A DNA stretch of 64,000 nt, from the NCBI GenBank assembly GCA_964550035.1, contig CAZJVU010000001.1, forward strand, positions 147,990-211,989, given 5' to 3'. The stretch comes from an uncultured Candidatus Saccharibacteria bacterium. GTDB lineage: Bacteria > Patescibacteriota > Saccharimonadia > Saccharimonadales > EFPC-124. Made by a program: the position numbers and the translations under genes. Under the pieces are notes generated by a model, which ran no database searches, had not been told where the DNA came from, and saw nothing but the letters and a program-made list of their open reading frames with translations. This document shows, one piece after another, positions 10,282-37,684 of this stretch (its first letter is position 1; each line of letters begins with the position of its first letter).

Positions 10282-10774
10282 CCACGAATCTTACATGCGA
10301 GCTGCGATAGCCGCGGCGCAGCAGGCTGAGGCGCAAGGCGGTGTCGCGATCGGTGCGGTGCTTGTCGACAATACAACCGGCGAGATTGTCGCCACAGGCG
10401 GGAGCATCGTAGGCGTCACCAAGGACCCGACGTCACACGCCGAGATCAATGCCATCCGCGGAGCTGCGGACAAGTTTCAGACCGATCAACTGTATGGTCT
10501 GACGCTCTACGGTACGCTTGAGCCATGTCACATGTGCCTGAGCTGTGCAGCTTGGGCGCGTATCCCGAAGGTGTATTTTGGTGCGTATCGCAGGGATGTC
10601 GACGAGTCGCTCTTTGATATCAAAGGCGACTTTAGCGACGAAGCAGAGGGCAAACGCATGAACTTACGAAGTAATACGACCATGCAGGTACACGGCGGCG
10701 TCCTCGAGGCGGAGTGCGCGCAGCTGCTTGCACGGTATGGCGAGCAAGACCATCGTCGTTCGCCCTTAGCGTAA
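10274..10774 (+). CDS. CMP/dCMP-type zinc deaminase (TadA / guanine deaminase-like)
   Basis: HAEINAI ... PCHMCLSCAAW zinc motifs, with GGAGGG before the ATG at 10274. Confidence 0.8.
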   Translation: MDSHESYMRAAIAAAQQAEAQGGVAIGAVLVDNTTGEIVATGGSIVGVTKDPTSHAEINAIRGAADKFQTDQLYGLTLYGTLEPCHMCLSCAAWARIPKVYFGAYRRDVDESLFDIKGDFSDEAEGKRMNLRSNTTMQVHGGVLEAECAQLLARYGEQDHRRSPLA

Positions 10775-10828
10775 ATACAGTTTTACAGCTGCACCCAATT
10801 CGTACTACGATTGAATCGGAGAAAGCCA

Positions 10829-11425
10829 ATGTTACCTGCCTGGTTCACTGTATTTTCTGTGGCTATTCGACTATTCGGCGGTGCGCAGTACTGCTGGGGA
10901 GTTTTGCGCGGCAAAGCGCAGCCCAACCCGATCACATGGTTTCTGTGGGGGCTAACTCCGCTCATTACGCTTTTCGCGAGCTTGCAATATGGATTGCAGC
11001 CTCAGGCGCTGGTACTTCTGGCGTTGGCGGTCACGCCCCTGACCGTGAGTGGTCTGGCGCTCATCGTACACAAACATCGACGGCGTGAACATTTCACGCC
11101 GTTTGCATTAGTGTGTGGTGCGCTCGCGCTGGGCGGTATCGTGCTGTGGCAGGTGACGTCAATTCCGGAGCTGGCTATTATCTTTAGTATTGTCGCTGAT
11201 ATCTTCGCGACATTACCAACGCTCGAGAAAGCGTATCGGAATCACGCCAGCGAGTATGCGTGGCCGTACTTCATGTCGATTATCAGCATGGCAGTTACGC
11301 TTCTGACGATTCGAGAATGGGCGTTTGCGGTGTATGCGTTTCCGCTGTATATGTTGCTGGTTAATGTCGTGCTGTTTATGTTCGCGCTCGTGCCGTTTAG
11401 GAAGCTATTCCAGCGGGCGAGCTAG
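10829..11425 (+). CDS. Hypothetical integral membrane protein
   Basis: Six or so hydrophobic helices, with GGAGAAAG before the ATG at 10829. Confidence 0.5.
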   Translation: MLPAWFTVFSVAIRLFGGAQYCWGVLRGKAQPNPITWFLWGLTPLITLFASLQYGLQPQALVLLALAVTPLTVSGLALIVHKHRRREHFTPFALVCGALALGGIVLWQVTSIPELAIIFSIVADIFATLPTLEKAYRNHASEYAWPYFMSIISMAVTLLTIREWAFAVYAFPLYMLLVNVVLFMFALVPFRKLFQRAS

Positions 11426-12354
11426 TTGTTCGGCTTGAGCGTTTTGGTGACGGAGTCAACGATCTGGAGTGCGCCAGCGTTTGACTGACGATAACTCTCA
11501 GAGCCAAGGACGGCACCAATGATTGTCTTTTGCTGGCCGTTGATCGTTGCGTTGGTCGAGAAGAGGAGCGTGTTGCGTGCTTGGACGCTTTCGCCTGGCT
11601 TCAGCCCGGTGTAACCATATTTTGTGACCATGGCATTGTAGTTGGGGACATCGCCGGCGTATGGAATATTGGCGGTGGGCAGGGCGACGATGTGTGCGAT
11701 AACGGGATTCTTGAGTGCAGCTTCGCCGAGGCGGACGAGATCGCTTGCGGTGCTTTTAGTGCTTGGGTCTAGGCCGCTTGCGTCAACGCCGACAACCGTG
11801 TCGTTGAGGCCAAGGCGTTTCAGCATTACGTTGGCATAGTCGTGATACTTCTTGAGCGAACCAAATGCCCAGACGGCCGTCGTATCAGCGATATTATTGG
11901 CGCTGGGGAGGAGCATCCCCTCGAGCGCGTCACGCTCAGTCAGGGGCACACCGGCTTTTACGAGTACGACCGTCCCGTTCTTGGCCACGTAGTCACGGTA
12001 ATACTGTTCGTCTTTTTCGGTGATGGGAATACTCGGGCCCATGTCGTCGCCAGCGAGCGGATGTTTTTCGAGGACCGCGAGGGCGGTGATAAGTTTGGCG
12101 ATGCTGGCGATTGGTCGTGGCTTGGCGTCGTTGTGGCTATCGACGATACCGCCACCGGCAATCCCAACTGCGGCGGTGGGGATGTCGCTGGGCCAGTCAA
12201 CGGTGGCCGTGTAGGCTGGCTTTGCTGGTTTGGCGTGCGCCACTTCGCTGACGTGCTGAGAACGATGTGTTGCAAAGAAGATACCGCCAGAGATAAGAAT
12301 GGCGATGAGTATGAGTTTGAAGGGGAAGCGGCGTTTTTGTTTTGGGAGTGTCAT
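11422..12354 (-). CDS. D-alanyl-D-alanine carboxypeptidase (peptidase S11 / PBP5-like)
   Basis: SxxK (SIAK) and SxN (SAN) motifs, plus an N-terminal anchor. Confidence 0.8.
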   Translation of the reverse strand: MTLPKQKRRFPFKLILIAILISGGIFFATHRSQHVSEVAHAKPAKPAYTATVDWPSDIPTAAVGIAGGGIVDSHNDAKPRPIASIAKLITALAVLEKHPLAGDDMGPSIPITEKDEQYYRDYVAKNGTVVLVKAGVPLTERDALEGMLLPSANNIADTTAVWAFGSLKKYHDYANVMLKRLGLNDTVVGVDASGLDPSTKSTASDLVRLGEAALKNPVIAHIVALPTANIPYAGDVPNYNAMVTKYGYTGLKPGESVQARNTLLFSTNATINGQQKTIIGAVLGSESYRQSNAGALQIVDSVTKTLKPNN

Positions 12355-20609: not shown

Positions 20610-21419
20610 ATGCGATCATTAAACGGTTCAGATTTAGCTGGCTTTATCAAAGAGCGCCAAGCGCACCAGGTGCGTGGGCTTATTCAGGCGCACTATGTCA
20701 CGCCCAAGTTGGCGATTGTGCAGACCGTGCATACGCCGGTGATTGATGCGTACGTTCGCCTCAAGAAGGCGTATGGGGCAGATATCAACGTCGTCGTTGA
20801 GGCGCATGTCATTGAGCAGTCCGACGCGCTCGAGACGATCAAGCAGCTCAACGCCGATTCATCGGTGCACGGTATTATTGTGCAGTTGCCAGTCGCCGAC
20901 CCTGTGCAGACGGATGAGCTCGTAAATGCGGTTGACCCCGCCAAGGACGTGGATGGTCTCGGCCAGAATCCTGCCTTCGACCCAGCCACGCCGACAGCGG
21001 TGAACTGGTTGCTTGCTGGGTATAATGTCGAGCTACGGCACAAGAAGATTGTGATCGTTGGTCAAGGCCGCCTGGTTGGTGCACCACTGAAGCAATTGTT
21101 TGAAGAGTCGGGCTTGACTGTCGAAACGGCAGATATCACGACCGAGGACTTGGGCGCGCTGACTCGAACCGCCGATGTGCTTATCTCTGCGACCGGTCAA
21201 CCGGGGCTCATCAAGAGTGGCATGATCATGCCGAGTGCGGTTGTTGTTGACGCTGGTGTAGCAACCGATGCCGGCAAGATGGTTGGCGACCTCGCGGACG
21301 ATGTGCGCGAACGCAGCGATCTGACGATTACGCCACCAAAAGGTGGGGTCGGGCCGCTGACGGTGTGTGCACTGTTTGAGAATGTGATTGAGGCAGCACG
21401 GCGGGCTGCGAAGCAGTAA
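20610..21419 (+). CDS. folD: Bifunctional methylenetetrahydrofolate dehydrogenase/cyclohydrolase
   Basis: GIIVQLPV, DVDG and the GGVGPLTV signature, within 269 aa. Confidence 0.9.
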   Translation: MRSLNGSDLAGFIKERQAHQVRGLIQAHYVTPKLAIVQTVHTPVIDAYVRLKKAYGADINVVVEAHVIEQSDALETIKQLNADSSVHGIIVQLPVADPVQTDELVNAVDPAKDVDGLGQNPAFDPATPTAVNWLLAGYNVELRHKKIVIVGQGRLVGAPLKQLFEESGLTVETADITTEDLGALTRTADVLISATGQPGLIKSGMIMPSAVVVDAGVATDAGKMVGDLADDVRERSDLTITPPKGGVGPLTVCALFENVIEAARRAAKQ

Positions 21420-21445
21420 GGTTGAGGTTTTTTCTAGGGCACGGA

Positions 21446-21551
21446 CCGGCTTTTCACCCACCGTCCCTCCGAGCTTGGGGCAGATGAGCTTCGCTCGCCT
21501 GCCGCCAGGCTAGGTTTAACCGTCGGGACGGTGGAGGTGGGTGAGCGCCGG
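21446..21551 (+). repeat. GC-rich rod-like hairpin element, copy 1 (candidate structured RNA)
   Basis: Arms CCGGCTTTTCACCCAC / GTGGGTGAGCGCCGG close a 106-nt imperfect hairpin. A second copy at 30123..30232 on the opposite strand has identical arms and compensatory stem changes. Confidence 0.5.
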
Positions 21552-21624
21552 CCGGCGTAATACCAAGATTCCCTTTGCTAGCATGCCTGAGGGCTTTGCC
21601 CGAAGAAGAATGGGGTGGCAATCG

Positions 21625-21647
21625 GCGGGGCAGCACCCGCTTTTTTT
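21625..21647 (+). terminator. Intrinsic terminator downstream of element copy 1
   Basis: GCGGG-gcagca-CCCGC followed by TTTTTTT. Confidence 0.6.
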
Positions 21648-21710
21648 GTTGTACTAATAAAAAGAAGGGGCGGACCGACTGACAGGACCCCAGTCCATTA
21701 TCAAATAAGT

Positions 21711-22241
21711 TTATTGTCCGTCGCGAATGTCCGTCATACCAAGCTTATCCTCGAGATACACCACCGTCGGGAGTGCCAACAAGTGGAATTTGACAGTATA
21801 TGACGGTAGCTTATACCCAATCTCGGGGTTAATGCCGCGATCTGCCGCCTTGAGGTCGAAGCCTTTGTCGGCATATTTCTTCAGAAAGTCATCTTTATCG
21901 TCAAACAAGACAAGCTCAACATGCTCGAGCCCTTCTTTTGTTGGCGTGTTCGGCTTTGGCGCCGGAAGCTCTAACGCGTCAATACGCCAGCGGTCATACC
22001 GAACTGGTTCAGCAAGCCGGAATGTCGCAATTGGCCTGCCATTCACTTGGTTCTCGCCAATGAGCTTTCCGACAGTTGCGAGCTCTGCTTTTTTGGCCGC
22101 GTAATCTTCCGTGGACGATACGCGATAGCACATATGGTCCATCTGAGAGAAGTCATCCAGATCGAATCCGGCGTCTTCGATTTCGCTCACGATCTGCTTA
22201 AGAAAGGCGTTGTAGCCGCCAACGATTTGCTGGAGTTTCAT
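21711..22241 (-). CDS. yecM: YecM-like VOC-fold metal-binding protein
   Basis: DHMCYRV, NGRPIATFRLAEPV, EGLEHVELVL and VKFHLL line up with my recollection of E. coli YecM. Confidence 0.6.
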   Translation of the reverse strand: MKLQQIVGGYNAFLKQIVSEIEDAGFDLDDFSQMDHMCYRVSSTEDYAAKKAELATVGKLIGENQVNGRPIATFRLAEPVRYDRWRIDALELPAPKPNTPTKEGLEHVELVLFDDKDDFLKKYADKGFDLKAADRGINPEIGYKLPSYTVKFHLLALPTVVYLEDKLGMTDIRDGQ

Positions 22242-22243
22242 GA

Positions 22244-27536: not shown

Positions 27537-29738
27537 ATGCTCAGTTCGTTTACTATATTGACTATATTAACAATCATTGCCTTAGTAGCACAACTGCTAT
27601 TGACGGTAGGTGTGCTTGTTAAGAACAGTTCTAGCCTGCGAAACAGGGCGTTTTTCTTCTTGTCGCTTTCATTGTTAGCATGGGCAGTCGTTAATTACGT
27701 ATCCGAAACATACCCCGATGTGGCGAAGACGATCTACGTTATTCGCTTTATTATGCTCTTTGCGGTAGCGCAGAACTGTTTCTTTGTGTTGTTTGGATAC
27801 TCGCTGGATGGTCGGGGATTGCGGGTGACGCGGAGGGGCATCCTGTATGCCTTACTTAGTCTCGCCACTGCAGTAATCACCCTTACGCCCTTTCTTTTTT
27901 CACACCTGGCGCCAACAGCAAAAGGCGGCATATATCCGGTGGCGCAGCCGGGTATGGCGCTATTTGTGGTGCATGCTGCATTGTCGATTACGATTGGTTT
28001 TCGCTATTTGTTGCGCGAGTTACGGTCCTCAAAAGGCGCGCGCCATCAACAGATGGTATTCATCTTTGCCGGCTCTGTGGTGTTATGGGGGATTGTGCCC
28101 ATCACTAACTTTGCGCTCTCGGTTACGCTTCAGACGAGCCTGTTTGCAAACTTTAGCCCGTTCTATGCTTTCGCTTTCTCGTCGTTGATCGCCTATGCCG
28201 TCATAAAGCACAGATTGTTTGACATACGCTTGGCAATTGCGCGAACCGTCACGTATTTGTTCTTGCTGTTTACGCTAGCCAGCATGTACGCATTGGCAAT
28301 CTTTGGCTCGGCGCGGTTATTCTTTGGAGCGAGCAATGTAACTGTGTGGCAAAACGCAGTCTATGTGGCGCTCGGTCTATTCTTGGCCTTCACCCTCGAT
28401 CCGCTACGTCGATTCTTCAGCCGGCTGACCAATAGGTTTTTTTTCCAGGATATCTATAACACCGATCTTGTGTTGGATGACCTAAGCGATATCCTCGTGC
28501 ATACCACCTCAGTGCACGATTTGGCGCGTCGTTCGCTTAAAACGTTGAACGCTGCCCTTAAGGCCGAAGCGGCAGCAATCGTCGCACTGGACAAGAAAAC
28601 TGGCAAGATCGAGAAGGTCGTGGGAGTGGGCGGCCGTCGCCTGCGCCTAGACGATGTTGTTGCGCAGGCATCAGGTAGCAAGCAGCCTATCTTGGTTTTG
28701 GACGAAATAGTTGAAGATAGTCGCCACCTGGCGCGCAGCATGCAGGAGGCTGGCGCGGCAGTTGTGGGCAGAATGGAGACTAACAAGGAACGTATCGGCT
28801 ACGTCGTATTCAGTTACAAGAGCGGTGGCGGTATGTATACCGATCAAGATCTTTATCTTATTCAGATTGCCGCGGACGAGCTGGCCGTCGCTACTCAAAA
28901 CGCTCTGCGCTTCGAGGAGATCTCGCATTTCAACGAGACGTTGCAAGGCCAGGTCCGCGAAGCCACACGCGAACTGCGCGAGAGCAACAAAAAACTCAAG
29001 TCGCTTGATGAAGCCAAGGACGAGTTCATCAGCATGGCCTCGCATCAGCTCCGCACACCGCTTACCAGTGTGAAGGGCTATATGTCGATGGTGCTCGAGG
29101 GCGACGCCGGGAAGCTGAACCCCACGCAGCACCAGCTGCTCGAGCAGGCATTTGCCAGCTCGCAGCGCATGGTGTATCTGATCAGCGACTTTCTGAACGT
29201 CTCGCGCCTGCAGACTGGTAAGTTTACCATCGAGCGCACGCCCGTTATATTGAGCAATGTCGTGCAGCAAGAGGTGAACCAGCTGAGATCAACCGCAGAG
29301 TCGCGCAACTTGACTATCGAATGCAGCGTCCCGAGCGAATTTCCGGCGCTACAGCTCGACGAAAGCAAGCTGCGCCAGGCGATCATGAACTTTGTTGATA
29401 ATGCTATTTTCTACTCGCGGCCGGGCGGCGTGATCAAGGTCGATCTCATCAAGACCGCAAAAGACGCCGTGCTGACAGTTGAGGATAGCGGAATTGGCGT
29501 GCCCATGAGTGAACGACATCATTTGTTCACAAAGTTTTATCGTGCCAGTAACGCCCGCACTGCCCGACCTGACGGCACAGGTATTGGGCTGTTCATGGCC
29601 AAGAAAGTTGTTGTCGCCCACGGCGGGTCGATTATTTTCAACAGTGTCGAGGGCAAGGGGAGCACATTTGGCTTCCGTCTGCCGCTCAAGCAGCCCGCTG
29701 GGCTATCCGAAGATCATCCGAAAGAGCTCAAACAGTAA
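27537..29738 (+). CDS. Sensor histidine kinase (multi-TM sensor, GAF-like, HisKA, HATPase_c)
   Basis: H-box SHQLRTPLTSVKGY, N-box DNAIFYS, G-boxes DSGIGV and GTGIGL. The ATG at 27537 is preferred. Confidence 0.8.
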   Translation: MLSSFTILTILTIIALVAQLLLTVGVLVKNSSSLRNRAFFFLSLSLLAWAVVNYVSETYPDVAKTIYVIRFIMLFAVAQNCFFVLFGYSLDGRGLRVTRRGILYALLSLATAVITLTPFLFSHLAPTAKGGIYPVAQPGMALFVVHAALSITIGFRYLLRELRSSKGARHQQMVFIFAGSVVLWGIVPITNFALSVTLQTSLFANFSPFYAFAFSSLIAYAVIKHRLFDIRLAIARTVTYLFLLFTLASMYALAIFGSARLFFGASNVTVWQNAVYVALGLFLAFTLDPLRRFFSRLTNRFFFQDIYNTDLVLDDLSDILVHTTSVHDLARRSLKTLNAALKAEAAAIVALDKKTGKIEKVVGVGGRRLRLDDVVAQASGSKQPILVLDEIVEDSRHLARSMQEAGAAVVGRMETNKERIGYVVFSYKSGGGMYTDQDLYLIQIAADELAVATQNALRFEEISHFNETLQGQVREATRELRESNKKLKSLDEAKDEFISMASHQLRTPLTSVKGYMSMVLEGDAGKLNPTQHQLLEQAFASSQRMVYLISDFLNVSRLQTGKFTIERTPVILSNVVQQEVNQLRSTAESRNLTIECSVPSEFPALQLDESKLRQAIMNFVDNAIFYSRPGGVIKVDLIKTAKDAVLTVEDSGIGVPMSERHHLFTKFYRASNARTARPDGTGIGLFMAKKVVVAHGGSIIFNSVEGKGSTFGFRLPLKQPAGLSEDHPKELKQ

Positions 29739-29918
29739 CCAGCCAACAATCACGGCGCCACCGCCAATGCCACCGATCAGCTTGTACTGCTTCTTGTGGC
29801 TGTCCCACCATTCGCGGGCGGGGCTTTTGACCTCGGCTTTGTAGCGGTGAACCGTCGGAGTGCTGGCAGCATCACGGCCGGTGTATTGCTTGGTGCGTTT
29901 TTTCTTGGGTTTGTTCAT
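29703..29918 (-). CDS. Small C-terminally anchored basic protein (hypothetical)
   Basis: 71-aa ORF: Lys-rich N-terminus, then IGGIGGGAVIVGWLLFELF. It overlaps the kinase 3' end (convergent). Confidence 0.4.
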   Translation of the reverse strand: MNKPKKKRTKQYTGRDAASTPTVHRYKAEVKSPAREWWDSHKKQYKLIGGIGGGAVIVGWLLFELFRMIFG

Positions 29919-30024
29919 TATTTCTATTGTATCAGATGGTGTAATACCTCGGCCGCTTCTCGCCTCGTATGTTTAGCGCAGTCGCTGCTCCGCCGACTTC
30001 CTCCTCAGCAACGGTCCTGAGCTC

Positions 30025-30058
30025 GTATTCTTTGTGTTTGTTGTAACACAAAGAATAC
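30025..30058. other. Perfect 13-bp AT-rich inverted repeat
   Basis: GTATTCTTTGTGT-ttgttgta-ACACAAAGAATAC. There is no U tract on either strand, so the role is unknown. Confidence 0.3.
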
Positions 30059-30122
30059 TTCGTGCGGATGTTGCTTCACAGGAAGCCAGGCGGATCGCTG
30101 AGGAACTTTGTGCTATCGTCAG

Positions 30123-30232
30123 CCGGCGCTCACCCACGTCGTCTTCCCGACTGTATCGGAGCCTGGCGGATCCAAGAGCGAATAGCTCTGATCCCCAAGC
30201 AGGAGGGAATGGGGGCGTGGGTGAAAAGCCGG
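30123..30232 (-). repeat. GC-rich rod-like hairpin element, copy 2 (candidate structured RNA)
   Basis: The reverse complement aligns with 21446..21551. The terminal arms are identical, and the blocks TCCCTCC, GCTTGGGG, CCGCCAGGCT and GTCGGGA are conserved. Confidence 0.5.
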
Positions 30233-30372
30233 TGTTGCAGAAGACAGGCTCAAACAGGAAAGCCTGCTACAACAATAGTATTGACACCCCGACCCAGCTA
30301 ATGGTTTCATGTGCTCGCGAGGCGCCAGGGAAGCCGTTCACAAAACGTTGGCGTCTCGCGCCGCCGTAAATC

Positions 30373-30404
30373 AAAACCACCCCAGAGTAATCCGGGGTGG
30401 TTTT
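30373..30404 (-). terminator. Bidirectional intrinsic terminator after ORF 30436..32388
   Basis: AAAACCACCCC-N10-GGGGTGGTTTT, with T runs on both strands. Confidence 0.65.
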
Positions 30405-30435: not shown

Positions 30436-32388
30436 TTAGCGCTTGAACGTGTCGCGCAGGTTGCGACGGCTGCCGACCCAAGCCTTGAGGCTGAGGCCGA
30501 GAGCGCTGGTACCAAAGAGTCCGCCAGCTACGATGCCGGCGCTGGTGTTTGGCAGTTCACCAGGAGTTTCACACTCCTTGTTACCCGCTGGAACACCAGG
30601 CTTACATTCGTTACACTTTTGGTCGCCCATAGGGACGCCTGGCTTACACTCGGTGCAGCGGCTGTCGCCCATTGGGATACCTGGCTTACATTCTTCAGGT
30701 GCGACAGTAACTTTCTTGGCACAGTTGTCACTGGTGATACCAGTAACGGTCTTGCCGTCTACTTCGAAGGTTACCGAAACCTTAGTGGTGTAATCACCAG
30801 GCTTGTCGTATTTGTGGGTCTGGGTTTCTTGGCCTGCGCCAACGATGATGGTCTGGCCATCGCCGAAGTCGAAGCTGTATTCCTTGACCTTGACGTTACC
30901 TTGAGTTTTTGGAGTTACCTTGTACTCGAAGGTGTCGCGTGACTTCTTGATTACGTCAAGAGCGTCACAGGTGTATTTGTTCTCGACAGGCTGTTCTTTG
31001 ACCTCGAAAGGCTTCTTACAGTTGTCGCTGGTAGCGGTCTTTTCCTGACCGTCAACCGTTACGACGACGGTTGCCTCGACGGTGTACTTGCCGACCTTTG
31101 TCTGGTCGTAGGTAAGGGTGCCATCGATGCTGTCTTTCGTGTCAAGCACGGTGCCCTTGTCGTCACGAATGACGTAGACAAACTTCTTGAACTCGGCGTT
31201 CTCTACCATCTTTGTGGCGGTGAACTTGAACTGAGTTCGCGAGATTTGCTCGACGTTCAGTGCAGAACATTCGTATTTCGGAGGCTTAGTCTCTTCACAC
31301 TTCTTGGTGGTTGTGACGTCAGCGGTGTCGCTCTTGCTGCCGCTGTCGGTTTCGACGGTTGCAGAGTTGGTGAGCTTGTTGTCGCCACAAGTTGGCAGGC
31401 TGTCGTTATCGGCAACCTTAGCGCTGAAGATAACCCACGCGTTCGCGCCGGCTGCGTATGAACCAATGTTCACACCGCCCTTGGTGACGTTGTCGGAAAT
31501 CTTTGCGCCGTCTGGTGTCTTGGTGTTACCCAGGACAGAGCTGCCGTCGACGTATGTTTCGCCAGCTGGCAGGGTGTCTTTGACGACAACGTTGTCTTGT
31601 TGGGTATCACCAGTGTTCTTGTACTGGATCAGGTAGTCAACGGTTTCGCCAGGCTGAGCAGCGTAGCTCTCAACCCATTTGTTCTCGCCGTGCTTGCTGA
31701 CGAGTTTGCTCATGGTGAAGTTGGTGCTCTGAGGAGCCTCAACTTTTACCTTGAAGGTAACGTACCCGGCGTATTGCATACAACCAGGGATGATACCGTC
31801 GAGCTTGTCGTAGCCAAGTGGTGCACCAGCGTCGGTAACGATACCGTCGCTCAGCTGTGCGCCGGCTTGGCCAAATGCGTTGTTGTACAGACGAGCTGAG
31901 CCAGCTTGGTAGGCAACGTTGAAGTCGCTGTTGCTGGTCAGTGTTGCTGAATCCCAAATCTCCTGAGGAGCGGCGTTGTCGGCAGTAATGAAACCACCAA
32001 GCTGGACGCTCTTACCAGTTGTGTTCGGGACATTTACCTTGGTGCGTACGTTTGTAGCCTTCAGGTTGAGGTTGGCAGCTGCGTCGTTGTGGACGTAGAT
32101 GCGAACCAGGTATTCGTGACCAGCCTGGGCGGTCACGCTGTCTTGCCAGCCACCGGCGGCGGTGTTACTGGCGTCTTTGATCGTTAAAAAGTTACGTTCG
32201 TCGCCGACTTCTGAGTTGTCGGTGATCGAGTCAAACGTCACGTGGTCAGCAGGGTTGGCCATGGTGTAGGTAGGACGGTCAGGACCCCATGCCATAACAA
32301 CGGCAGGAATCATAACAGCAGCTACGGCAACGCCCATAGGCAACCAGCGCTTCGGAACGCGACGAAGTAATGTAGAAACAAACTTCAT
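30436..32388 (-). CDS. Cell-surface protein with PKD-type repeats, Cys-rich CKPG[IV]P repeats and an LPNTS sortase-type sorting signal
   Basis: Signal peptide. PKD-like FDFGDGQT. ECKPGIPMGDSRCTECKPGVPMGDQKCNECKPGVPAGNKECE. Then LPNTSAG, a hydrophobic stretch and an RRNLRDTFKR tail. Confidence 0.75.
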   Translation of the reverse strand: MKFVSTLLRRVPKRWLPMGVAVAAVMIPAVVMAWGPDRPTYTMANPADHVTFDSITDNSEVGDERNFLTIKDASNTAAGGWQDSVTAQAGHEYLVRIYVHNDAAANLNLKATNVRTKVNVPNTTGKSVQLGGFITADNAAPQEIWDSATLTSNSDFNVAYQAGSARLYNNAFGQAGAQLSDGIVTDAGAPLGYDKLDGIIPGCMQYAGYVTFKVKVEAPQSTNFTMSKLVSKHGENKWVESYAAQPGETVDYLIQYKNTGDTQQDNVVVKDTLPAGETYVDGSSVLGNTKTPDGAKISDNVTKGGVNIGSYAAGANAWVIFSAKVADNDSLPTCGDNKLTNSATVETDSGSKSDTADVTTTKKCEETKPPKYECSALNVEQISRTQFKFTATKMVENAEFKKFVYVIRDDKGTVLDTKDSIDGTLTYDQTKVGKYTVEATVVVTVDGQEKTATSDNCKKPFEVKEQPVENKYTCDALDVIKKSRDTFEYKVTPKTQGNVKVKEYSFDFGDGQTIIVGAGQETQTHKYDKPGDYTTKVSVTFEVDGKTVTGITSDNCAKKVTVAPEECKPGIPMGDSRCTECKPGVPMGDQKCNECKPGVPAGNKECETPGELPNTSAGIVAGGLFGTSALGLSLKAWVGSRRNLRDTFKR

Positions 32389-36003: not shown

Positions 36004-36408
36004 GTGAATAAAGAGACGCCGCAGATACCACAGCTCATGAATGCCCCTTTAAAGGCGGGATTTCCTAACCCAGCCGAAGAAGCGGGTGGATTTGCGCTCG
36101 ATCTCAATCAGTATCTGGTCAAGCACCCTGTTAGTACCTATTATCTGAGGGTAGAAGGTGATTCGATGACCGGGGCGGGTATCACCTCTGGAGATATAGT
36201 GGTGGTTGATAAGTCGCTTCAGGCACGGTCAGGTGATATCGTCGTGGCGGCGGTGGACGGTGATTTTACGCTTAAAAGACTCAAGAAACAGGGGAGCGGC
36301 GCCTGGCTAGTGGCCGAACACCCCGGTTATTCGCCGATCGCGCTCCATGAAGCAACAGATGCCGCTCTCTGGGGTGTGGTGACATTTGTCGTGCATAAGG
36401 CTCGGTAG
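36004..36408 (+). CDS. umuD: UmuD-like S24 peptidase (translesion polymerase accessory subunit)
   Basis: GFPNPAEE ... VEGDSMTGAGI ... FTLKRL matches the LexA/UmuD Ser-Lys dyad context. It sits directly upstream of umuC. Confidence 0.8.
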   Translation: MNKETPQIPQLMNAPLKAGFPNPAEEAGGFALDLNQYLVKHPVSTYYLRVEGDSMTGAGITSGDIVVVDKSLQARSGDIVVAAVDGDFTLKRLKKQGSGAWLVAEHPGYSPIALHEATDAALWGVVTFVVHKAR

Positions 36409-36409
36409 T

Positions 36410-37684
36410 ATGGCAAGAAAACCTGTTTTTGCGCTTGTCGACTGCAATAACTTCTTCGTGAGCTGCGAGCGAGTATTTCGACCTGACCTCTGGGACAAGC
36501 CCGTCGCGGTATTGAGCAACAACGACGCCTGTATTGTGGCGCGCAGCAACGAAGTTAAGGAGATGGGTGTGCCCATGGGCGCGCCGCTCTTCAAGATCGA
36601 CCATCTGATGAAGGGGAAGGGCGTGACGCTGTTTTCGGCCAACTTCCGTTTGTATGGCGACTTCTCGCAGCGTGTCGTGCGGATTTTGACCTCTGTGGCA
36701 CCAGAGATAGAAGTGTATTCGGTCGACGAGTCGTTTCTGGAGATATCGAGCCTGCCCGTCGATAACTATCAGGAGTGGGCCGAGACAGTGCGCGCTTGTA
36801 TCTTGCAGTGGACGGGTATCCCTGTATCTATTGGGGTGGCGCCCACCAAGACACTCGCCAAGGCGGCCTCGGAGTATGCCAAGAAGACAGCAACTTCATC
36901 TGGGGCCTATGTCGTGGCGGAAGATAACAGAGAAGACCTCTTGAGATGGCTCGCAGTCAAAGATGTGTGGGGCGTCGGGCGTGCGCTGGGGCCGAAGCTT
37001 CTGCAGCGCGGTGTCTCGACAGCATATGATCTAACCCAGGTGAGCGAGGTGTGGGCGCGTCAACAGATGTCGATCCGCGGCCTCAAGACCGTCAAAGAGC
37101 TCAAAGGCGAGAGCTGCCTCCCCCTGGAGCACGAAGTCGAACCGCAGCAATCTATCGCTCGCACGCGTTCATTCGGGCACAACGTGCGTGACTACTATCA
37201 GCTCGAGGGCGCCATTGCGACGTTCGCAGCTCAGGCGGCTGTAAAATTGCGTGCGCAAAAGGAGATTGCAACAGGGGTGGTTGTATTCGTGCGAACTCCG
37301 CATAACTTCGAAGGCGGGCATGGTTCCTCGACCCTCGTGCGCTTACCTCAGCCTACCTCTGACACTGGTGAGCTTATTGCAGCTGCGCTCAAGGGACTTG
37401 AGATTATCCGCGATCCGGATTTTGCTTATAAGCGCGCGGGCGTGGCGTTGGTGGGGCTCGTCTCGAAAGAAGCCTGGCAGCTTTCACTCTTGCAAGATTC
37501 TTCGGGGCTAGATAAGAGAGCGGCGCTGATGCAGTCAGTCGATCAGCTGAATACGAAATACAATACGCGATTAATCCGTCACGGCAGCGAGCACCTCGAG
37601 CTTACAGGGTGGCATAGCAAGCACGAACTCCGCAGTCCAGCGTACACAACATCGTGGAGCGATCTGCCTATTATCAAGAGGTGA
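36410..37684 (+). CDS. umuC: Y-family DNA polymerase (UmuC-like)
   Basis: FALVDCNNFFVSCERVF N-terminus and SVDESFLE. The ATG lies one nt after the umuD stop. Confidence 0.85.
   Translation: MARKPVFALVDCNNFFVSCERVFRPDLWDKPVAVLSNNDACIVARSNEVKEMGVPMGAPLFKIDHLMKGKGVTLFSANFRLYGDFSQRVVRILTSVAPEIEVYSVDESFLEISSLPVDNYQEWAETVRACILQWTGIPVSIGVAPTKTLAKAASEYAKKTATSSGAYVVAEDNREDLLRWLAVKDVWGVGRALGPKLLQRGVSTAYDLTQVSEVWARQQMSIRGLKTVKELKGESCLPLEHEVEPQQSIARTRSFGHNVRDYYQLEGAIATFAAQAAVKLRAQKEIATGVVVFVRTPHNFEGGHGSSTLVRLPQPTSDTGELIAAALKGLEIIRDPDFAYKRAGVALVGLVSKEAWQLSLLQDSSGLDKRAALMQSVDQLNTKYNTRLIRHGSEHLELTGWHSKHELRSPAYTTSWSDLPIIKR

Follow-up and report, generated by a model that had tools for sequence, protein, structure and literature searches.

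The hairpins of the Rickettsia palindromic elements (RPEs) are kept by compensatory change, and the attC sites of integrons, imperfect palindromes of about 60–140 nt lying shortly past the stop codon of a co-oriented gene, conserve structure over sequence and are strand-specific as single-stranded DNA (ssDNA) hairpins. RPEs make up an old, diverged family of palindromes of about 150 bp in a reduced genome, and often insert in-frame in protein-coding genes; the ERIC and Correia MITEs are imperfect palindromes of 100–150 bp, found in either orientation in intergenic DNA or 3′ UTRs, with a presence and copy number that change from one strain or species to another and with RNA hairpins, co-transcribed with the flanking genes, that alter transcript stability (PMC10969869). 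Bacterial MITEs in such intergenic and 3′-UTR positions affect transcripts via RNase III or RNase E (PMC10969869). REPINs, which are doublets of REP sequences mobilised by RAYT transposases in a Pseudomonad or an Enterobacterium, are extragenic units of about 100 nt with two invariant, inverted ends of about 16 nt and a less conserved spacer; they are predicted to form long hairpins as ssDNA or mRNA, in which compensatory changes between the arms are common, occur in higher-order or nested arrangements, and have an asymmetric single-stranded tail in a putative intermediate (Bertels & Rainey, 2011; PMC3116915).

Here we describe an element from a patescibacterium, an uncultured Candidatus Saccharibacteria bacterium of the Saccharimonadales, that resembles each of these systems in part. 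It lies in a 64,000-nt stretch of DNA with a GC content of 55% (the window). The description of REPINs fits it point by point, from a size of about 100 nt and inverted conserved ends around a more variable spacer to a hairpin with compensating arms, an asymmetric tail and a nested arrangement; the size, location and variable orientation of ERIC and Correia elements, and the age and divergence of the RPE family, find their counterparts in it; and, like attC, it is palindromic, conserves its structure and stands shortly past a co-oriented stop codon. On balance, we favour the view that it is one of a small family of palindromic intergenic repeats, non-autonomous and confined to a clade of the Saccharimonadales, that functionally are of the MITE/REPIN/ERIC kind.

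An initial annotation of the window had reported a hairpin present twice, in opposite orientations and with identical termini, and both copies were located as described. Copy 1 occupies 21446..21551 on the plus strand (106 nt); copy 2, at 30123..30232 on the minus strand (110 nt), has the same architecture, with extra junction bases between helices P2 and P3. Together they are the top-ranked inverted repeat of the window (I1). Read in the same sense (copy 2 as its reverse complement), the two copies have CCGGCTTTTCACCCAC at their start and GTGGGTGAGCGCCGG at their end, and a scan of the 64-kb window found these exact strings in the two copies only. The unit is an imperfect palindrome of about 106–110 nt with strongly conserved ends (CCGGC followed by a variable arm on the 5′ side, GAGCGCCGG on the 3′ side), which in both window copies form terminal inverted repeats (CCGGC..CACCCAC / GTGGGTG..GCCGG). 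The end sequence by which related full-length IS elements would be recognised is CCGGCGCTCA; we know of no IS element related to the repeat. In copy 1, six helices make up the rod: P1 (CCGGC/GCCGG), P2 (UUCACCCACC/GGUGGGUGAG), P3 (GUCCC/GGGAC), P4 (GCUUGGGG/CC-G-CCAGGC), P5 (CAG/CUG) and P6 (UGAGC/GCUCG). The internal motifs (U)CCCUCC and GUCGGGA are invariant. A protein-coding explanation was rejected, the open frames being unlike between the copies and the indels not being multiples of three. Copy 2 is identical in two Logan contigs (L020 and L021). Two other Logan contigs end at or near copy 1, one (L002) within it and one (L022) at window position 21667, and we considered these contig ends as a possible sign of more copies elsewhere in the genome.

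How firm is the hairpin itself? As RNA, copy 1 folds at -63.9 kcal/mol (z = -5.2) and copy 2 at -55.3 kcal/mol (z = -4.8) relative to dinucleotide shuffles, none of which (0/200) folded as well. When the two copies are aligned with guidance from the structure, 30 of the 36 pairs are unchanged, six are changed on both sides and none is broken; the copies differ in only 12 of 72 stem columns, as against 28 of 44 columns that are unpaired. The initial annotation was right about the internal blocks common to both copies and about the compensatory stem changes, and adding homologues from two related genomes (discussed below) extends the covariation. In the resulting four-sequence alignment (A10), which was model-fitted to the structure and so leans towards it and inflates the pairing figures somewhat, 96.9% of the cells form standard pairs and 12 of the 36 pairs are changed on both sides, values reached by none of 500 shuffles; one pair takes four types (AU, CG, GC and UA), and sliding the partners by 1–3 columns leaves only 0–2 covarying pairs. 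These statistics were taken from the hand alignment and from A10, because the MAFFT alignments (A2, A7 and A8) misplaced the apical helices. Folded separately, each sequence reaches the same rod independently. Conserved across the four are the outer helix CCGGC/GCCGG, a GAGC ahead of the 3′ CCGG, the motif (U)CCCUCC(U) and its partner region AC(A/C)GUCGGGA. The hairpin is truly maintained in the family, and this structural observation is real and statistically solid.

Could the copies nevertheless be chance hairpins, or unrelated GC-rich, terminator-like stems of no common origin? All that speaks for this is the GC-rich, hairpin-prone character of intergenic DNA. It is refuted by the identical 16- and 15-nt termini, found at the two copies only, by covariance-model E-values between copies and homologues of 1e-8 to 1e-28, by the shuffled folds, and by the lack of a U-tract: copy 1 is followed by CCGGCG and copy 2 by CTGACG. 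For want of this U-tract the hairpin is not an intrinsic terminator either, and the only terminator-like sites that a scan returned, at 21624-21641 and 29766-29753, do not lie within an element.

The two copies differ in their surroundings. Copy 1 follows folD (20610..21419, plus strand; Pfam THF_DHG_CYH and THF_DHG_CYH_C), whose stop lies about 26–27 nt before it, in agreement with the 27 nt given initially. Convergent with folD is a gene of the YecM family (21711..22241, minus strand; Pfam YecM). The terminator that had been noted beyond copy 1 was also found, as a hairpin (GGCGGGGCAGCACCCGC) followed by T7 at 21624..21648 on the plus strand, 72 nt past the copy; since it would end the folD transcript, copy 1 would lie in the folD 3′ UTR. 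Copy 2, by contrast, does not share the convergent setting that had been claimed for both. It lies 203 nt downstream, on the minus strand, of a DUF11/PKD gene (30436..32388), and is followed by a co-oriented gene for a 71-aa protein (29703..29918, minus strand) that the initial annotation had overlooked and that is conserved in relatives (75% identity to its L007 counterpart). The DUF11/PKD gene has its own intrinsic terminator (CCACCCCGGATTACTCTGGGGTGG then TTTTGATTT; 30368..30400, minus strand; inverted repeat I2), which is conserved in L007, L025 and L032 and lies upstream of copy 2. An extended -10 box, TGATACAAT (29926..29934, minus strand), stands 7 nt upstream of the 71-aa gene in an 89% conserved block shared with L032. 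Given this order of gene, terminator and -10 box on the minus strand, with about 135 nt between the terminator and copy 2 and about 190 nt between copy 2 and the box, copy 2 falls in spacer DNA behind one gene's terminator and ahead of the promoter of the next gene, and is probably little transcribed or not transcribed at all. No sigma-70-like promoter was found upstream of either window copy or of the homologues in L033 and L032.

Homologues were located by way of the loci of YecM homologues, using covariance models built from either window copy. (Copy 1 itself scores 133.7, 59.0 and 91.4 bits with models R1, R2 and R3, and copy 2 139.9 and 103.3 bits with R2 and R3.) They occur in two related metagenomic genomes, in both cases in the folD/YecM intergenic gap. 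The first, at L033:1046-1153, is identical in L034, from a different sample, and scores 38 bits with R1 and 79.7 bits (E = 3e-15) with R2; the adjoining FolD and YecM proteins are 87% and 76% identical to those of the window. Its termini differ from the window's (CCGGCGCTCATCCAC...GTGAATGAGCGCCGG), and its 26-nt arms are 85% complementary. Other long hairpins exist in intergenic DNA, as at L033:1237-1340. The second homologue, at L032:10562-10692, scores 32.2 bits beside a YecM 81% identical to that of the window. It is rearranged: its 5′ half, whose terminus CCGGCTTTTCACCCAC exactly matches that of the window copies, runs to the apical helix and is directly followed by a 66-nt mini-hairpin (CCGGCUCUUCGGUACCU...AGGUAUCGAGCGCCGG) that has no P4–P6, and whose P2 departs from the family consensus at most positions, yet is fully paired. 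This copy is truncated or nested.

In pairwise alignments the homology runs on for about 25–45 nt on the 3′ side of the hairpin, so that the unit is an asymmetric hairpin-plus-tail module of about 135–155 nt. The tail of copy 1 (CCGGCGTAATACCAAGATTCCCTTTGCTAGCATGCCTGAGGG; 21552..21593, plus strand) is homologous to that of the L033 copy (z = 5.3, 0/1000 shuffles); the tail of copy 2 (CTGACGATAGCACAAAGTTCCTCAGC; 30097..30122, minus strand) is homologous to those of L032 and L033, the similarity of pairs other than copy 1 and L033 being at z about 3.2–3.3 (p about 0.01). On the 5′ side, pairwise alignment showed a leader ACGGA (21441..21445, plus strand) to be shared by copy 1 and the L033 copy only, not being present upstream of copy 2 or the L032 copy. 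A scan of the sequence downstream of the L033 and L032 copies found no terminator, which puts the copy 1 terminator outside the conserved module; the RNA of roughly 200 nt ending at that terminator, as proposed initially, is accordingly not conserved in the homologues.

Two features of these relationships are difficult to reconcile with a gene fixed in its place. With YecM and the conserved 21-nt sequence flanking it, GGACTGGGGTCCTGTCAGTCG, set in the same direction, the module in both L033 and L032 is reversed with respect to the window: the 'sense' strand of the module runs with folD in the window, but with YecM in the two relatives. Furthermore, copy 2 is 79.5% identical to the L033 copy, 81.8% identical to the L032 5′ half and 72.9% identical to copy 1, while copy 1 and the L033 copy, at the same locus, are 69.3% identical. 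As judged from these sequence comparisons, similarity among the copies is incongruent with their loci.

The distribution of the element among close relatives is also patchy. In five genomes with FolD 82–89% identical, it was found neither at folD nor, where this was covered, at the slot of copy 2; these element-free relatives include ones with FolD 87–89% identical. L025 has the response-regulator gene immediately next to folD, with no element in the slot; in L023 the slot holds another ORF, and in L005 and L007 it holds other genes. L032 has no element at the copy 2 slot. Among the relatives examined, the element occurs only in those that carry YecM at the folD locus, the element-free ones compared having no YecM there; at distant YecM loci in other contexts (L035 and L036) it was not found. 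In all, the element is visible twice in the 64-kb window and at a single site apiece in two relatives.

Wider searches produced no further member. A family profile run over 355 kb of sequence found none, and the four-sequence covariance model recovered only copies 1 and 2 from the 64-kb window; two weak covariance-model matches (L025:11461-11512 and L007:18043-18091) were dismissed as unrelated GC-rich, terminator-like hairpins. An exact pattern of the termini gave a single match in the GTDB genomes, in a coding region of L001, and 11 in the JGI metagenomes, all of them attributable to chance; this pattern is too strict, because the termini of the relatives differ. Three patterns searched in viral contigs returned nothing or chance matches, blastn against phage and plasmid collections gave no match, and a six-frame pseudo-protein of both copies matched nothing among 5.8 billion predicted proteins. 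In Rfam 15, two tRNAs are all that passes the gathering threshold in the window, and even at E<=10 the surroundings of the copies and of the L033 homologue gave only noise (E at least 0.29, with scores far below the gathering thresholds), and the hairpin matches no Rfam family. SRP RNA, 6S RNA, Y RNA, attC, group II intron domain V and the ends of IS200/605 likewise found no support, by eye or in Rfam. As far as Rfam and the searched collections go, the element is new.

The reading of the initial annotation, that this is a novel structured RNA, retains real support. It would make the hairpin and tail a dedicated RNA, either a cis-acting 3′-UTR element or a small RNA or protein-binding RNA released from the 3′ UTR, with its function carried by the invariant internal-loop motifs CCCUCCU and ACAGUCGGGA and its stems free to covary. 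We regard this as possible, though doubtful. The covariation is strong while the loop motifs are conserved, the element begins 27–33 nt past the stop of a co-oriented gene at all three convergent-gap sites, and a strong terminator follows copy 1; moreover, no Rfam family matches, so that the RNA, if real, would be new. What stands from the original claim is a conserved, unannotated structure with compensatory changes. Compensatory changes, however, are also typical of palindromic mobile repeats (PMC3116915). An RNA gene is further made doubtful by the failure to find a promoter at any copy, by a terminator that is not conserved, by the position of copy 2 in a spacer that is likely untranscribed, by the nested or truncated L032 copy without P4–P6 pairing, by equally close relatives that have no element, by the incongruence between copies and loci, and by an orientation that is not fixed between the same flanking genes. 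As to the spacing from the stop codon, an element in a convergent gap has a co-oriented gene upstream of it whichever way it faces.

On the side of an RNA, two G.U wobbles are conserved on the 'sense' strand (columns 8-111 and 36-73), and the covariance models score sense far above antisense (79.7 vs 26.2 bits for L033 with R2, 103 vs 24 bits for copy 2 with R3). The wobble argument by which the initial annotation had chosen RNA over a DNA palindrome holds for the two window copies, whose only irregularities are G.U, but is not borne out by the L033 copy, which has a sense-strand C.A mismatch (as does the L032 mini-hairpin, one in each) and folds better by 12 kcal/mol as antisense RNA. Sense and antisense energies (kcal/mol) are -63.9 and -61.5 for copy 1, -55.3 and -64.2 for copy 2, and -59.6 and -71.5 for L033, the antisense strands thus folding about as well as the sense strands or better; with DNA parameters, both strands form significant hairpins. 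Counted over the alignment, G.U outnumbers A.C on the sense strand by nine cells to two, corresponding to about five independent columns against two, which is not significant. The strand preference is weak.

A variant of the RNA interpretation takes account of the movement. CCUCCU is the core of the anti-Shine-Dalgarno sequence, which the invariant CCCUCCU of the element resembles. It is conceivable, if unlikely, that the hairpin-plus-tail module is a new structured, functional and clade-specific class of Saccharimonadales RNA at gene 3′ ends that relocates as a small cassette, in which case the CCCUCCU loop and ACAGUCGGGA would bind to a protein or to the ribosome-binding sites of mRNAs. Relocation as a small cassette would explain both the orientation flip and the patchy distribution.

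The reversal of the module between the same flanking genes in relatives could also point to a site of DNA recombination or inversion, in which the palindrome, or a near-palindromic edge motif CGGWCCG, would be the substrate of a site-specific recombinase; the module would then be a YecM-associated segment that can be inverted or behaves like a cassette, as opposed to a transposing repeat. The motif, as CGGACCG, stands at both edges of a 229-nt block that contains copy 1, and in L033 it borders the YecM flank; at this locus the element and YecM are found together, and the slot between folD and the response-regulator gene is a hot spot of gene content. However, the case depends on a motif of 7–10 nt, and a 9/10 match between direct repeats of 10 nt is estimated to arise about one to two times by chance in 331 nt, one having been found per region. 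No gene for a recombinase or an integrase turned up among the scanned ORFs of the window, copy 2 is accompanied by neither YecM nor CGGWCCG, attC core sites are missing from the termini, and the YecM homologues in other contexts (L035 and L036) lack the element. We consider a recombination site very improbable.

We return, then, to a palindromic repeat, which we prefer to a fixed RNA gene because the ends are conserved while the interior compensates, because the copies lie in gaps at gene 3′ ends in either orientation, and because they are patchy in close relatives, related as paralogues across genomes, and in one case truncated or nested. The element occupies permissive gaps at gene 3′ ends, in either orientation; it has been gained, lost and rearranged between close relatives, and its two arms co-evolve so as to keep the hairpin. 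It is probably mobile, and probably restricted to a narrow clade of the Saccharimonadales. Why should the hairpin be kept? A single-stranded form may be needed for propagation or tolerated by the host, this form being ssDNA during mobilisation or replication, a transcript, or both; alternatively, one arm may be repaired from the other. A copy that falls inside a transcription unit would be transcribed as a very stable 3′-UTR stem-loop, and the arrangement of gene and terminator suggests that copy 1 is passively co-transcribed with folD in this way. Such a stem-loop may alter the stability or processing of the mRNA 3′ end, as for ERIC and Correia elements.

Several observations count against a mobile repeat. 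Few copies are visible in the window and the relatives; they are 69–80% identical, unlike the near-identity that follows recent bursts; there is no consistent target-site duplication and no mobilising gene in the window; the one-sided 3′ tail is atypical of a symmetric MITE, and the termini are not REP-like palindromes; the loop motifs are invariant while the stems vary, and G.U pairs are conserved, as would be expected also of a functional RNA; and all three elements in convergent gaps start 27–33 nt after a stop codon. The initial annotation had contrasted its RNA with a MITE or REP-type DNA element present in many near-identical copies with target-site duplications. The evidence approaches the latter but does not fully reach it, with two copies visible, about 73% identical, and no target-site duplication seen. 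No direct repeat is common to the flanks of the four sites, and the single 10-nt direct repeat around copy 1 (CGGACCGGCT/CGGACCGACT) is at chance level; a 4-bp duplication of CCGG is conceivable, because the terminal CCGG is itself palindromic. Among about 60 ORFs of the window that were scanned, none encodes a transposase, RAYT, integrase or reverse transcriptase.

Can the element be assigned to any of the systems with which we began? It differs from REPINs in that its ends are not short REP palindromes (neither CCGGCTTTTCACCCAC nor GTGGGTGAGCGCCGG has an internal palindrome), its copies are far more diverged, its copy number is apparently low, and the 64-kb window has no RAYT (Y1 transposase). 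Unlike ERIC and Correia elements, with which it has no sequence similarity, it shows no TA or other target-site duplication and has a one-sided 3′ tail. Nor has it any sequence similarity to RPEs, and, whereas these often lie in-frame within genes, the two window copies stand between genes and have frames that indels disrupt. It departs from attC in having neither the R″/R′ core sites (RYYYAAC / GTTRRRY are not in the termini, CCGGC... / ...GCCGG) nor an integrase in the window, and in not belonging to a cassette array, folD being a core gene. In view of the missing target-site duplication, REP-type ends, attC core sites and U-tract, of a window with no transposase, RAYT, integrase or reverse transcriptase, and of the one-sided tail, we do not place it in a named family, and describe it rather as a new family within a general kind that is already known.

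The genomes of Patescibacteria (CPR) are small and are regarded as repeat-poor, and a full-text literature search on miniature inverted repeats in Patescibacteria found nothing related; for both reasons the element would be a useful marker of genome dynamics in these organisms. For the discovery of RNA motifs it carries a caution, in that clean compensatory changes between two copies, even together with conserved G.U pairs, are not enough to tell an RNA gene apart from a palindromic repeat of the DNA. Should the RNA interpretation prove true, it would bring to light a new class of RNA, from a lineage that is uncultivated. A diverged palindromic repeat that preserves its structure while moving or flipping between close relatives would mark the dynamics of their genomes, and would imply a mobilising activity in the clade.

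The interval between folD and the response-regulator gene, in which copy 1 lies (window 21420-22243), is a hot spot of gene content. It is occupied by YecM in the window and in L032 and L033, contigs that carry homologues of the element, and its counterparts in four other contigs contain TauE (L005), three small ORFs (L007), a 135-aa ORF (L023) or nothing (L025). In the window, a direct repeat of 10 nt (21442-21451 and 21671-21680; CGGACCGGCT / CGGACCGACT) flanks the 229 nt that comprise copy 1, its tail and the terminator, and the near-palindromic core of this repeat, CGGWCCG, recurs next to the YecM flank in L033, a contig in which the module of hairpin and tail is inverted. Taken alone, the repeat is at chance level, yet it is located at an apparent inversion boundary.

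Two contigs from the same sample, L003 and L032, both stop near the element (at 10794-10832 and 10720-10751, respectively), and GCCAGAGTATCCTC is present at both ends, on what are expected to be opposite genomic strands. By implication, an inverted repeat separates the folD stop from the tail of the element, and the assembly broke there. The Nextera adapter sequence (CTGTCTCTTATACACATCT...) at the end of L006, an ENA contig (about 2150-2205), is an assembly artefact and not biology. In L025, a Saccharimonadales-like contig of otherwise about 55% GC, the GC content rises to about 75% over 11400-11960, and this segment may have a foreign origin or reflect chimeric assembly; a GC-rich hairpin inside it was the source of weak matches to the covariance models built from the element.

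The YecM/folD gap of L033 contains a second rod-like hairpin (1237-1340; c. 104-114 nt), unrelated to the element, with arms CCCACCACTCCACAAC / GTTGTGGGGTGGTGGG and a fold energy of -61.3 kcal/mol (z = -6.2). No further copy of it was found among the sequences compared here, and its matches in Rfam were at noise level only.

On the minus strand, the tail of copy 2 includes GATCCGCCTGGCT (window 30084-30096), which shares 12 of 13 positions with the 3' strand of helices P5/P4 in the copy 2 hairpin (30160-30172). Either part of the hairpin has been duplicated internally, or the tail offers a potential alternative partner for pairing. The window-specific segment that separates copy 2 from the 71-aa gene contains an AT-rich perfect 14-bp hairpin without a T-tract (30025-30058; GTATTCTTTGTGTT-N6-AACACAAAGAATAC). 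The small 71-aa gene itself (29703-29934 with its upstream box, minus strand), kept in L007, L025 and L032, shares sequence with the 3' end of the histidine kinase gene, which is encoded on the other strand. Just 7 nt 5' of its ATG is a conserved TGATACAAT box, and such proximity suggests that its mRNA is leaderless.

Elsewhere in the window, this reduced genome carries an operon of the error-prone polymerase V type, a umuD/umuC-like pair (36004-37684) encoding Peptidase_S24 and then IMS/IMS_C/DUF4113 domains.
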